Positions 8,775 to 41,489 of a stretch of 64,000 bases of DNA are shown here, in pieces. The notes under the pieces were generated by a model that saw nothing but the letters and a program-made list of their open reading frames with translations, had not been told where the DNA came from and did not search any database. Every line of letters starts with the position of its first letter. Positions within the stretch are counted from its first letter, which is position 1. The position numbers and the translations under genes were made by a program. This DNA comes from Promethearchaeota archaeon (GTDB lineage: Archaea > Asgardarchaeota > Hermodarchaeia > Hermodarchaeales > Hermodarchaeaceae). The DNA is taken from contig JBHLMG010000003.1 of assembly GCA_048938385.1 (NCBI GenBank), forward strand, positions 21,090 through 85,089, written 5' to 3'.

Positions 8775-9239
8775 ATGCCAAGAGAATCTTCTGGTCCGAT
8801 GCTTCAGACACTAAAATGCTCTGAATGCGGTGCAAAAATTACCCCTGATGCCTTACAACCTGGAAGTCCACTCATCTGTGAATACTGTGGTGCTATCAAT
8901 ATCCGACAAACACCGCAACTTCTGCAACCAACCGCTCGCCGCTTTGGACGACGCCCAGGAATGGCTACTCGACGAGGACTAATGCGTGCCCCAATTCTCT
9001 ACATTGCTCGATTGCTCTCAGATAAAGGTGCTATAGATGCCAAAACCCTACGAGAATATACAAAACGCAACATCGACCGCCGTATGCGGCCAGTCGATGC
9101 TCTTCGTCAGGCTCTCCGCCAAATGCGAGACGAAGGAAAACTCAACCGGGATAAAATTCTACATACCGTAGATGAGCTTATTGCTGATAAGAAACTTCCC
9201 CCCAGAGTCCGCGATAACTTTGCACGGCTTCTCCAATAA
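8775..9239 (+). CDS. zinc-ribbon domain protein
   Basis: CSECG...CEYCG N-terminus followed by a basic helical domain. Confidence 0.7.
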   Translation: MPRESSGPMLQTLKCSECGAKITPDALQPGSPLICEYCGAINIRQTPQLLQPTARRFGRRPGMATRRGLMRAPILYIARLLSDKGAIDAKTLREYTKRNIDRRMRPVDALRQALRQMRDEGKLNRDKILHTVDELIADKKLPPRVRDNFARLLQ

Positions 9240-9314
9240 CTCTACTATTCATTTTTTGGCTCCTCAAACATTTTTGCCCTAGGAATGGCAAAGAGTTCTC
9301 AACAAACAAGAAAT

Positions 9315-9467
9315 GGAGCATTGGGGGCCATGGCGGATTAGGCACCTCCGAAAAAGGACATATTGTCCTATTAGGACACAATTGGAGGGGAGAGGGAATG
9401 GTTTTCTAGGGGGGAGGGAAGTGCCAAGATCTTTCGCCAAACCCAATGTTCCCACATTAAGCGCTGA
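9315..9467. ncRNA. structured intergenic element, copy 1 of a dispersed hairpin family
   Basis: Nested stems GGAGCATTGGG/CCCAATGTTCC, TGGCGGA/TTCGCCA and GGCACCTCC/GGAAGTGCC. The 28 nt at 9389-9416 are identical to 41290-41317. Confidence 0.6.
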
Positions 9468-9598
9468 GTTGTGTTATTTAAAGAATTCCGTTGAGTTCTA
9501 CTTTAAAAAGCGTCAAACAATCAGAAAATGTTAAGGAGCTGAGTATCCCCCTAGATCAGGGAGGGTTGGTTTTTTGATGCTTTCATGACACAGAAGCG

Positions 9599-11065
9599 CT
9601 ATTCCAGGTCAAGAGCCTTCGGAATTGGGAGCATCGAATGGCGCTGATAGTAATCGTAGATGATTCTGAGAATTCCTGCCGCTTCAGCAATGTTCGAAAA
9701 TACAGGGAGATTCCCATTCCGAAATTGTTCACGGGTTGCTAAATTTTCATGTGGGTAGCCAATGGCAGGAACCGCGACAAAAAAGGGTTTGTGCAGGTTC
9801 TTCACACAATAGGTTCCTGCCTCGATCATCATGTCCCAGTAGGTTGTCGCCATCTCTTGCATATCCATGTGCTTGGCCATGAAGTTTACATAGTGAGGCG
9901 CAGCTTCGACTATGATCGCATCAATGTTCTTATCCTCAGCGACATGACGGATGGTTTGGACAGTAATGTCGGGGTAAAAATAACTGGAAGCCATGTCTAC
10001 CGGGTTCGTGATGTTCGTGCCCACCTTGTTGACGATTTTGCTCAAGGCATTAATAGTGTCGGAAGTTAGCTTGGGAATTTCGAATCCATATTCAGCTAAG
10101 GAATCAGTACCTGCCACGCCTGCACCACCGCTGATGGCAATCAGAGCCACCCGTTTCCCAGGCGGTGGTGGGCAGCGCATGAAGGTCACTATTGTGTTGA
10201 TGAGCACTTCAAAGCTATCGACGGAGACGGCACCGATTTGTCGGAGAAGCGCATGCCAGATATCTGTAGAGCCTGTTAGGGCTGCACTATGACTAGAAAC
10301 TGCTCTCTGCCCCGCTGGAGTGATACCCGATTTCCATACGATGATGGGTTTATCAGGAGCACACTTGGCAATGGCGTCGCGTAAGCGTGGTCCATCTCGC
10401 ACCCCTTCAATGTATATACCAATAACTTGGGTAGTGGGGTCTTGGTGGAGATACTCAACCAGTTCCCAACTACTGATGTCTCCCTCGTTGCCGTAACTGA
10501 ACACTTTACTCACACCAAGTTTGGTTTCTGTCACAGCTAAGTAGCAGTCGATGGCTTTACCCCCGGATTGGGAGATAAATCCTATTGGTCCAGGGTTTGG
10601 TTTGAGGTCTGGACGGAAGGAAAAGCCAGTCTCAGGGCAAGCTAGACCAATACAATTGGGACCAAAGGCTCGCATTGGACTTGCTCGAATTTTCGCCATA
10701 ATTTCTTGTTCCCGTTGGCGGCCTTCCTCTGTGCCTAGCTCTGAAAAACCGCTGGTGAAAATCGTGATGGCTTTCACATTCTTGGCAATGCATTCGTCAA
10801 TGACTTGTGACACTATCTGAGCAGGAACACGGATTACTGCATAGTCTAAAGGATCAGGAACCTCGCTTAGAGATTTATAGAACTTCAAACCGACCGCTTC
10901 GTCGATTTTCGGGTTCACGGGGTAGATTTTTCCTGGGAACCCATAGTTCAGGAATGACTTCAACCAGTAGAACCCTGCTTTTGGACTGGTGCCGATCAAG
11001 GCTACAGATTTTGAATGGATGAATTCGTCGAATTGCTTGAAAGTCTTGGCATCCATGGAGATCAC
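9599..11065 (-). CDS. acetate/acyl-CoA ligase (ADP-forming) alpha-subunit family
   Basis: CoA-binding N-terminus (SVALIGTS, IYPVNP), GPNCIG, ISQSG, SYGNE, phospho-His motif SSHSAAL, SGGAG, NPVD. Confidence 0.9.
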   Translation of the reverse strand: MISMDAKTFKQFDEFIHSKSVALIGTSPKAGFYWLKSFLNYGFPGKIYPVNPKIDEAVGLKFYKSLSEVPDPLDYAVIRVPAQIVSQVIDECIAKNVKAITIFTSGFSELGTEEGRQREQEIMAKIRASPMRAFGPNCIGLACPETGFSFRPDLKPNPGPIGFISQSGGKAIDCYLAVTETKLGVSKVFSYGNEGDISSWELVEYLHQDPTTQVIGIYIEGVRDGPRLRDAIAKCAPDKPIIVWKSGITPAGQRAVSSHSAALTGSTDIWHALLRQIGAVSVDSFEVLINTIVTFMRCPPPPGKRVALIAISGGAGVAGTDSLAEYGFEIPKLTSDTINALSKIVNKVGTNITNPVDMASSYFYPDITVQTIRHVAEDKNIDAIIVEAAPHYVNFMAKHMDMQEMATTYWDMMIEAGTYCVKNLHKPFFVAVPAIGYPHENLATREQFRNGNLPVFSNIAEAAGILRIIYDYYQRHSMLPIPKALDLE

Positions 11066-40665: not shown

Positions 40666-41115
40666 TCATTGAAACGGGTGAGAAGTGTACCTTGATACAT
40701 TATCTCGAAACCAAATAGGGACTTTAGCGACATCAACCTTGTCGGAAAATGGCATATACGGTTTGATGTCCACAACAGGAGTGGCATCGTGGGCATCAAT
40801 TTGATCAATATAGATGCGGTGTGTTTCTTCGTCTATGCGTTGAATCGCGACAATAGATAAGCCAATGGGTGTGGGTCGGGCAGGCGAACGACTAGCAAAC
40901 ACCCCGGATAATTTAGCGGCTTCTTGAGGGGGATAATCTTGCAGGTTTGCCCGACTTGTAGGATTATCATGTCCGGTTATCCACCAGAGGACGATGATGT
41001 GAGAAAACTGGTCTACCTGCAATGTTGCCTCCCAATATTGCGGCTCGATTTCGATGAAAATAAGACCATCATCGCGTTTCCGGATAAACCCAACAGTACT
41101 AGCGCAGAGATTCAT
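40666..41115 (-). CDS. trmO: TrmO/TsaA-like tRNA (m6t6A37) methyltransferase
   Basis: FSHIIVLWW, GVFASRSPARPTPIGLS, DAHDATPVVDIKPY. Confidence 0.8.
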   Translation of the reverse strand: MNLCASTVGFIRKRDDGLIFIEIEPQYWEATLQVDQFSHIIVLWWITGHDNPTSRANLQDYPPQEAAKLSGVFASRSPARPTPIGLSIVAIQRIDEETHRIYIDQIDAHDATPVVDIKPYMPFSDKVDVAKVPIWFRDNVSRYTSHPFQ

Positions 41116-41237
41116 GGAGCCTACTAGCGAACTTACTTCATAACAACTTTTCCGCCATTTTGTCAAAGAATAGAGGCGATGGATGCAAGGCTGCGCTCTT
41201 GGTTCTGCAACTCTGTAAAGGTAAGACTAGTATTGAT

Positions 41238-41366
41238 TGGCACGGGAGCTTTGGCGGATTCGACACCTCGGGAGTATAATGAAAACATCGGAGAGGGAAT
41301 GGTTTTCTAGGGGGGAGAGAGGTGCCAATACTTCTCGCCGCTCCAGTGACCACAGATTAGCACTGA
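41238..41366. ncRNA. structured intergenic element, copy 2 of a dispersed hairpin family
   Basis: Stems TGG-CAC-GGGAGC/GCTCC-AGTG-ACCA, GGCG/CGCC and CACCTC/GAGGTG. Shares the 28-nt loop and CCACA..ATT..GC.CTGA tail with 9315-9467. Confidence 0.6.
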
Positions 41367-41489
41367 ATGACCCTGTTCCTATCCGTATGTAAAATTCGAA
41401 CAGGTAACATATAAACGTATATACTGCCATCGAGCGAGCTACACACTTTTAAGCGGGATATTTTACTAGTCGCCTCACCGCTTCCGAGG

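Follow-up and report, generated by a model that had tools for sequence, protein, structure and literature searches.

The archaeal splicing endonuclease is known to act on tRNA introns, rRNA processing stems and a few mRNAs. Sibling small RNAs (sRNAs) with C-rich anti-Shine-Dalgarno loops are known from bacteria, namely LhrC1-5 of Listeria, RsaE/RoxS of Firmicutes and the csRNAs of Streptococcus, and sRNA41 of Methanosarcina mazei belongs in the same context. Here we analyze a dispersed hairpin element, two copies of which are located in a 64,000-nt stretch (hereinafter, the window) of contig JBHLMG010000003.1 from a Promethearchaeota archaeon of the family Hermodarchaeaceae. In the reading that we favor, with slightly better than even confidence, each copy encodes a promoter-driven RNA with a bulge-helix-bulge (BHB) stem that would be excised by the splicing endonuclease EndA, would probably be circular and would act in trans through a pyrimidine-rich loop. 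The site recognized by the archaeal splicing endonuclease consists of a 4-bp helix between two 3-nt bulges (PMC4090602; bioRxiv 10.64898/2026.10.13.758758); in pre-tRNAs, the bulges are located 3' of each strand of the central helix (PMC4090602), and the expected outcome for BHB substrates is cleavage by EndA, ligation by RtcB and a circular product (PMC4090602, PMC12558985).

A sequence-only reading of the window had reported an identical 28-mer in two regions 32 kb apart, with shared flanking arms, outer stems that differ in sequence yet pair, a variable insert beside a conserved loop and a common tail, and had proposed a new multi-copy non-coding RNA (ncRNA) family. This description is confirmed. 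The window contains exactly two occurrences of the 28-mer, on the plus strand at 9389-9416 and 41290-41317 (shuffled sequences are expected to contain none), and direct reading shows that the arms TGGCGGATT..CACCTC and GTGCCAA..TCGCC are common to copies 1 and 2. The outer stems of the two copies are unlike in sequence, pair in each copy and also covary across 51 homologues. The variable segment beside the core is real in both copies, consisting of an extra CCUCCAAUUGUGUCC stretch and an optional hairpin in copy 1 and of GAUGUUUUCAUUAU in copy 2. The tail is likewise present in both, yet it is only loosely conserved and has different roles, corresponding to the spacer between promoter and transcript start in copy 1 and to the 5' extension of the transcript in copy 2.

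The proposal of a multi-copy family is borne out as well. In the home genome (2.48 Mb in 51 contigs; designated G000), nhmmer and BLAST identified two more copies, the third on contig C1 and the fourth, which is diverged, on contig C26 (the four paralogous types are denoted c1 to c4 after these copies). Among 60 relatives searched with BLAST, the element was detected in 18 of the 18 other genomes of the same family, which represent two genera, and in none of the 42 genomes from the other families of the phylum. A covariance model (CM) built from the 51 homologues matched all 19 genomes of the Hermodarchaeota family, with four copies in most genomes of genus 1 (fewer in the more fragmented assemblies) and two to four in genus 2; across about 130 other Asgard genomes, it yielded nothing except for one borderline match (E = 0.009). 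A pattern scan of a species-level genome collection matched only Hermodarchaeota/Asgard metagenome-assembled genomes of this group, plus two chance matches in Pedobacter. Metagenome contigs contributed 27 additional copies, and the viral contigs scanned contained none; two metagenome pattern matches (L111 and L118) were inspected and dismissed as chance occurrences that lack the flanks. The copies are positional orthologues, and in seven genomes one contig carries both the copy-1 and the copy-2 type, at a distance of 25-37 kb.

The Rfam scan gave no match at the gathering threshold for the whole window, nothing relevant at E values of up to 10 for copies 1 and 2 and nothing relevant at up to 1 for copies 3 and 4, and the RNA components of the signal recognition particle and of RNase P were found elsewhere in the home genome. 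A literature search located no such RNA described in Asgard archaea and no description of non-coding RNAs in Hermodarchaeota. We are highly confident that this is a genuine ncRNA family, and it comprises previously undescribed small RNA genes of Hermodarchaeota.

When homologous loci are aligned, an A/T box is seen to be conserved on the element's far side. Read on the minus strand, it corresponds to the archaeal TATA consensus, TTTAAATA, in copy-1 types, whereas copy-2 types have TTTATATG and copy-3 types have either TTTTAATA or TTTTTATT; the distance of the box from the stem is fixed for each type. In the copy-1 type, this distance is 29 nt in all 11 full-length copies scored, and the twelfth copy has a second 8/8 box farther upstream; 29 nt from the first base of the TATA box to the first G of the basal stem is normal archaeal spacing. 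Across all types, 35 of the 50 copies have a box scoring at least 7/8 on the minus strand, against 3 of 50 on the opposite strand. Read on the minus strand, the paired positions comprise 140 G-U pairs against 85 A-C mismatches overall, the corresponding counts being 83 and 33 for the inner helices and 43 and 9 for helix P3, and the sequence past the stem is U-rich on this strand. Single-sequence folding of the plus strand was no better than that of shuffled sequences (z = -1.6 and +0.4). Judging from these sequence features, the RNA is transcribed from the minus strand of the window. Because the TATA box, the G-U bias and the U-rich downstream sequence are all on the minus strand, the RNA is the reverse complement of the loop after which the sequence-only reading had named the element, and its loop reads CCCCCCUAGAAAACCAUUCCCUCUCC. 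That reading had also entertained a minus-strand transcript with a C-rich loop, started from TTTAAA; this motif, at 9477-9482, belongs to the conserved TTTAAATA box, and the conservation of the box together with the G-U bias vindicates this option.

Covariation was counted for a specified structure, on a plain MAFFT alignment of the 51 homologues in the sense of the RNA that was not fitted to any structure. Pairing was found in 79.5% of the cells, compared to 33-46% when the 3' partners were slid by 1-3 columns, and the covariation score was 0.406 compared to 0.07-0.15 for the slid partners; 27 of the 33 pairs show changes on both sides, and none of 500 shuffles reached the observed values. 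This covariation supports a rod in which a variable outer stem (P1) is followed by a 4-bp helix, mostly GGCG/CGCC, and then by helices H2 and P3. In copy-1 types, H2 is just GAU/AUC, whereas in copy-3 types it merges with P3 into an uninterrupted helix of up to 15 bp; the helix formed by alignment columns 46-60 and 140-153 is paired in 84% of the cells, with changes on both sides in 11 of its 14 pairs.

The rod ends in a loop of 45-65 nt that is nearly free of G and is predicted to be unpaired in minimum free energy (MFE) folds. Its core, CCAUUCCCUCUCC, is invariant, the minimal invariant sequence over all four paralogs being AAACCA-N-U-N-CCUCUC, and about 24 nt of single-stranded loop are invariant across the paralogs. 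MFE folds of the c2 and c4 types include an additional hairpin, P4 (GAAAAC/GUUUUC), which in copy-2 types presents the core CAUUCCCUCUCC as a 15-nt hairpin loop and is kept in all 11 copies of the c4 type (GAAAAC or GGAAAC with GUUUUC). In the c1 and c3 types, P4 would be represented only by pairing between an A-run and a U-run whose lengths change together, and its presence in these types is at most plausible.

The sequence-only reading had correctly recognized the paired arms of the stem but overlooked the arrangement at its base. Between the 4-bp helix and H2, the 5' strand has three unpaired nucleotides (AAA, AAU or AGA), and between the 4-bp helix and P1, the 3' strand likewise has three (AUA, AAU or AAA), so that each bulge is located 3' of its strand of the helix and the orientation matches that of pre-tRNA BHB sites. 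The central helix is always 4 bp long, with columns 39-42 and 154-157 paired in 96.6% of the cells and with the compensatory variants GGCA/UGCC, AGCG/CGCU, CGCG/CGCG and GGUG/CACC. When bulge sizes of 2, 3 and 4 nt were tried for each of the 51 sequences, an H2 of at least 3 bp formed in 37 copies with a 3-nt bulge and in none with 2 or 4 nt; H1 (P1) of at least 3 bp formed in 32 copies with a 3-nt bulge, and with 2 nt in just five copies, all of the copy-1 type. The pairs that abut the bulges covary as well (columns 38-163: UA 23, CG 15, UG 6; 47-152: AU 25, UA 13, GU 12; 46-153: GC 25, AU 13). Both flanking helices have at least 3 bp in 19 of the 51 copies (all c3 types, c4 and some c1 types), and nearly all other copies are canonical on one side; copies of the c3 type have perfect hBHBh' motifs (two bulges on a central helix, with a helix on either side), with an H1 of 5-12 bp and an H2 of 8-15 bp. 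The metagenome copies share the same geometry: some are identical to copies in the model, and novel variants, one of them with GGUG/CACC, keep it. At the level of the family, this is the geometry of a canonical BHB site for EndA, with covarying adjoining helices.

The home genome encodes the putative machinery, namely two open reading frames (ORFs) of the EndA family (188- and 219-aa frames) and one RtcB gene (G000:C23:325049-325303, C23:190407-190667 and C23:204997-206307), the two EndA ORFs indicating a two-subunit (alpha-beta)2 splicing endonuclease. Such two-subunit enzymes have been reported to be lenient to relaxed motifs and to be present in most Asgard genomes (PMC4090602; bioRxiv 10.64898/2026.10.13.758758).

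We propose that each copy is an independent ncRNA gene, transcribed from its own TATA-box promoter on the minus strand of the window into a precursor of about 125-160 nt that would fold into a long rod with the BHB at its base. EndA would cut both bulges, after the second nucleotide of each under the rule applied here, and RtcB would join the ends, releasing an RNA of about 80-105 nt (Table 1 for copies 1 and 2; 81-87 nt in the other types). Under this scheme, the product would probably be a circle consisting of a short stem and a large, nearly G-free, C/U-rich loop with an invariant core (at minimum, CCUCUC), and P1 would vary with compensation while the interior is invariant because P1 would serve merely as a processing stem. 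We consider it probable that EndA processes most members of the family; that the end product is circular, which is expected by analogy with the processing of rRNA and tRNA introns, we would put slightly short of an even chance.

The released RNA would act in trans via the exposed pyrimidine loop, most likely by pairing with purine-rich, Shine-Dalgarno (SD)-like RNA, the main alternative being titration of a protein. The long pyrimidine tract exposed in the loop includes CCUCUCC, to which the copy-1 and copy-3 types add CCCCUCC. The home genome uses SD sequences, with GGAGG, GAGGT, AGGTG and GGTGA enriched 5- to 8-fold at positions -16 to -7 of long ORFs, and the 3' end of the 16S rRNA of a relative is GAUCACCUCCU. 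Because of the pyrimidine loop and the use of SD sequences in the genome, pairing with purine-rich ribosome-binding regions is chemically plausible; as the actual mode of action, antisense pairing with purine-rich RNA is a tentative suggestion that we would not expect to hold. A 19-nt perfect match, AAACATCGGAGAGGGAATG, connects window positions 41290-41308 (plus strand) with G000:C48:52573-52591, the last codons of a 409-aa ORF, so that the copy-2 RNA would be perfectly antisense to the end of this mRNA; the match is confined to the home genome, being present in none of 18 relatives. Two sites resembling ribosome-binding sites (RBS), on contigs C29 and C36, were discarded as targets given that they are not located at starts of real ORFs. 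The suggestion that the variable segment is a guide received no support.

Several observations weigh against the scheme as a whole. The start and end of the transcript, the cleavage and the circle are all predictions, and P1 taken alone lacks the asymmetry between G-U and A-C (57 to 52). No RNA run was among the sequencing runs listed for the sequence, and the four best runs yielded only contigs of the DNA type, with no joints, which bear on expression in neither direction. In the c1 type, the helix beside the second bulge is often only 0-2 bp long (in copy 1 of the window, a U-G pair followed by two mismatches), and in the c2 type, including copy 2 of the window, H2 beside the first bulge begins with an A-C mismatch followed by G-U and U-A, so that both window copies are relaxed rather than canonical BHBs. 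In genus 2, an extra, fifth paralog has retained the loop, but its 15-bp stem is continuous and contains no BHB, and processing is thus not obligatory for every member of the family. With respect to function, the invariant core CCUCUCC is an imperfect copy of the anti-SD sequence CCUCC, complements of the 13-nt core occur across the 19 genomes at the frequency of reversed-pattern controls, with no conserved mRNA target, and searches of the loop against the genome with BLAST-short scored like reversed controls. The best duplex with the rRNA of the relative involves helix 22/23 of 16S rRNA (GGGAGAGG...CUAGGG), at -50.7 kcal/mol compared to -45.8 kcal/mol for the best of 20 shuffles; this difference is too weak for the number of comparisons made to support any claim, and no rRNA target is indicated.

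Two observations made in the course of these searches can be recorded here. The BHB-less paralog, which has neither the 4-bp helix nor the 3-nt bulges, occupies G017:C185:8691-8806 and G016:C18:8974-9086 (loci L143 and L144). Among the rRNA genes, a congeneric 16S rRNA gene (G006:C71:619-4212, locus L096) spans 3.6 kb for a 1478-position model, which implies about 2 kb of insertions or introns, and the assembly that contains the window has no 16S or 23S rRNA gene.

Several other explanations can be considered against the same evidence. The sequence-only reading had placed an RBS followed by a three-codon minigene (M-V-F-stop) on the plus strand, which indeed reads GGAGAGGG-A-ATG-GTT-TTC-TAG in copies 1 and 2. 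The promoter drives the other strand, no conserved promoter exists on the side from which a minigene would be transcribed, and G-U pairs of the minus strand in P3 and the inner helices become A-C mismatches when the plus strand is read; furthermore, the T-run is 3, 4 or 5 nt long among paralogs and genera (TTT/TTTT/TTTTT), which destroys the frame and the stop codon, and only 1-2 nt separate the purine tract from the ATG. The minigene is accordingly very improbable. We give still less credence to a non-autonomous mobile hairpin, similar to miniature inverted-repeat transposable elements, or another DNA-level repeat, which the same reading had also raised and for which the several dispersed copies with inverted-repeat arms would speak. 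The copies form a fixed set of about four at orthologous, syntenic positions in all genomes, and such positional orthology excludes a mobile element; the stem sequence is particular to each paralog lineage and shows compensatory changes, the element has its own promoter, no transposase is encoded nearby and no copy was found on viral contigs. It is improbable as well, if somewhat less so, that the element acts in cis, as a leader or as a BHB "intron" within the 5' untranslated region (UTR) of the gene downstream. The co-oriented TrmO gene (40666-41166, minus strand) does begin some 60-70 nt past the end of copy 2, and a co-oriented gene for a B12-binding radical SAM protein follows closely after copy 3. 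Downstream of copies 1 and 4, however, no gene has the same orientation (the ORF that copy 1 faces is convergent), the genes that follow the copies are unrelated to one another, and the one after copy 3 has a separate TATA-like box.

The two remaining alternatives accept the RNA and differ in what it does. It could be a stable, linear, uncut RNA in which the 3-4-3 arrangement with GGCG-AAA-GAU / AUC-CGCC constitutes a protein-binding platform or a tertiary module. The higher conservation of the central helix and of the first bulge nucleotide (A) than BHB geometry demands would be explained in this way, as would the relaxed motifs of both window copies and the genus-2 paralog that has no BHB at all. 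Nevertheless, the exact 3-4-3 spacing, which defines an EndA substrate, is combined with covarying helices in four diverged paralog lineages and is perfect in c3 and c4, and a lenient two-subunit EndA appears to be encoded in the genome; we therefore consider an uncut RNA rather unlikely. The other alternative is that the G-free pyrimidine loop is not an antisense seed but binds a lineage-specific RNA-binding protein, the RNA, whether excised or linear, being a sponge or scaffold. The approximately 24-nt invariant loop exceeds a typical antisense seed and fits a protein site at least equally well, and no conserved complementary target was found in the genomes searched. Given that no candidate protein emerged, that the flanking genes are metabolic and unrelated between paralogs, and that nothing in the data directly favors protein binding, this possibility too appears unlikely, about to the same extent as antisense action. 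Within the favored scheme of EndA excision, the most far-reaching version, in which these are dedicated genes whose sole product is a circular RNA with a G-free pyrimidine loop, made by EndA and RtcB, that serves as a stable regulator of, or sponge for, SD-type sequences, the translation apparatus or a protein, is a speculative proposal that is more likely to fail than to hold.

The features of copies 1 and 2 are collected in Table 1.

Table 1. Features of copies 1 and 2 of the element in window coordinates; transcripts, cut sites and excised RNAs are predictions.
Feature	Position	Strand	Details
Copy 1, CM match	9312..9455		G000:C22:30401-30544
Copy 1, TATA box TTTAAATA	9475..9482	-	8/8 against the archaeal consensus; 29 nt before the first G of the stem
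Copy 1, predicted primary transcript	9308..9453	-	start at about 9453 +/-2, from TATA spacing; end in the U-rich tract 9300-9314
Copy 1, P1/H1 5' strand	9442..9452	-	pairs with 9315-9325; 11 positions, one A-C mismatch; helix covaries
Copy 1, P1/H1 3' strand	9315..9325	-	pairs with 9442-9452
Copy 1, central 4-bp helix GGCG	9435..9438	-	pairs with 9332-9335 (CGCC)
Copy 1, bulge B1 (AAA, 3 nt)	9432..9434	-	predicted cut 9433/9432; H2 needs exactly 3 nt
Copy 1, bulge B2 (AUG, 3 nt)	9329..9331	-	predicted cut 9330/9329
Copy 1, H2	9429-9431 with 9336-9338	-	GAU with AUC
Copy 1, P3 5' strand GGCACUUCC	9417..9425	-	pairs with 9341-9349 (GGAGGUGCC), one U-G pair
Copy 1, apical G-poor, C/U-rich loop	9350..9416	-	contains the 28-mer (9389-9416) and an 18-20 nt species-specific hairpin insertion (about 9352-9375)
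Copy 1, predicted excised RNA, possibly circular, 103 nt	9330..9432	-	from 9432 to 9330; BHB cut rule applied to the geometry
Copy 2, CM match	41233..41356		G000:C22:62322-62445
Copy 2, TATA box TTTATATG	41408..41415	-	7/8; in every c2-type copy, 56-60 nt ahead of the aligned stem
Copy 2, predicted primary transcript	41226..41386	-	from TATA spacing; about 30 nt of 5' extension before P1
Copy 2, H1	41340-41348 with 41241-41249	-	forms only with a 3-nt bulge
Copy 2, central 4-bp helix GGCG	41336..41339	-	pairs with 41253-41256 (CGCC)
Copy 2, bulges	41333-41335; 41250-41252	-	AGA; AAA
Copy 2, P3 5' strand GGCACCUC	41319..41326	-	pairs with 41262-41269 (GAGGUGUC), one G-U pair
Copy 2, P4 hairpin	41281..41307	-	GAAAAC 41302-41307 with GUUUUC 41281-41286; 15-nt loop CAUUCCCUCUCCGAU; MFE fold
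Copy 2, predicted excised RNA, possibly circular, 83 nt	41251..41333	-	from 41333 to 41251; BHB cut rule applied to the geometry

The hairpin insertion of copy 1 (UGUCCU-AAUA-GGACA on the minus strand) duplicates the adjacent UGUCC and is found in about half of the copy-1 orthologues. In copy-2 types, the predicted start and P1 are separated by a 5' extension of about 30 nt (window 41357-41386, minus strand), which is partly conserved and includes GGA-N-GG...UAG-G...

Copy 1 is located, as the sequence-only reading had stated, between convergent genes, namely an ORF for a small zinc-ribbon protein (8775-9239, plus strand) and one for an ADP-forming acetyl-CoA-synthetase-like protein (9599-11065, minus strand). 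The stretch directly upstream of its promoter (9500-9598) is conserved and T-rich and represents the 3' UTR/terminator region of the acetyl-CoA-synthetase-like gene; the T5 run in this region accounts for a second conserved A/T box beside the copy-1 TATA box. Copy 2 is flanked by the TrmO gene and by an acyl-CoA dehydrogenase gene on the plus strand. Generally, the genes around the paralogs are metabolic or uncharacterized and mutually unrelated, with no shared partner. Small zinc-ribbon proteins are encoded next to both copy 3 (G000:C1:20262-20633, plus strand, divergent) and copy 1 (convergent); the two proteins do not look like paralogs, and their proximity to the element is probably a coincidence. 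A CACCTC close to copy 3 represents the complement of the SD sequence of a divergent zinc-ribbon gene and is no 16S rRNA tail.

Assignment to several known classes of archaeal RNA was attempted and rejected. For an H/ACA guide sRNA, the "ACA" occurs in copies 1 and 2 but not in copies 3 and 4, and the strand that contains it is not the transcribed one; no G-A/A-G kink turn can be drawn at the internal loop. For a C/D box sRNA, CUGA is present only on the plus strand and is not conserved, and there is no C box. With respect to an intron-containing or permuted tRNA, ARAGORN detected no tRNA or tmRNA, the exons of copy 1 would total about 40 nt, and the enclosed RNA is G-poor and unstructured.

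If the proposed scheme is correct, a four-member family that combines a promoter, a BHB processing stem and an invariant RNA would represent a new class of EndA substrates and a set of purpose-made, possibly circular, small RNAs in Asgard archaea. Under the far-reaching version with a dedicated circular product, these archaeal relatives of eukaryotes would possess gene-encoded circular regulatory RNAs that are produced by the tRNA-splicing machinery and are not by-products of tRNA or rRNA maturation. The RNA biology of Asgard archaea is almost unexplored and bears on the origin of eukaryotic RNA processing. The predicted cut sites are defined to the nucleotide, which makes the prediction directly testable, and the CM can be used to annotate this RNA family in Hermodarchaeota genomes. 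The processing system is a known one; the novelty is in the stand-alone, promoter-driven class of four paralogous genes as its substrate.

The closest counterparts in architecture are the processing stems of archaeal pre-16S and pre-23S rRNA and the tRNA introns, including the tRNA-Trp intron that hosts a C/D sRNA, with which the elements described here share a long covarying flanking stem, a 4-bp helix and two 3-nt bulges. Unlike pre-rRNAs and tRNA introns, however, each element appears to be a stand-alone gene with its own promoter in which the "exons" are only a stem of about 20-50 nt that can form no tRNA, and cleavage is predicted; the enclosed RNA also differs from all known BHB cargoes in being neither rRNA, nor part of a tRNA, nor a C/D or H/ACA guide. 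The permuted and split tRNA genes are similar in that a leader and a trailer pair into a BHB around the RNA to be circularized, whereas the sequence enclosed here is almost free of G and forms no cloverleaf. In the deployment of several paralogs with an invariant, single-stranded C/U-rich motif that is able to pair with ribosome-binding sites, the family resembles the LhrC, RsaE and csRNA siblings. It has no sequence or structural homology to these RNAs or to sRNA41, and it is distinguished from them by its occurrence in this archaeon, by the BHB processing stem and by a core that is an imperfect match to the anti-SD sequence.

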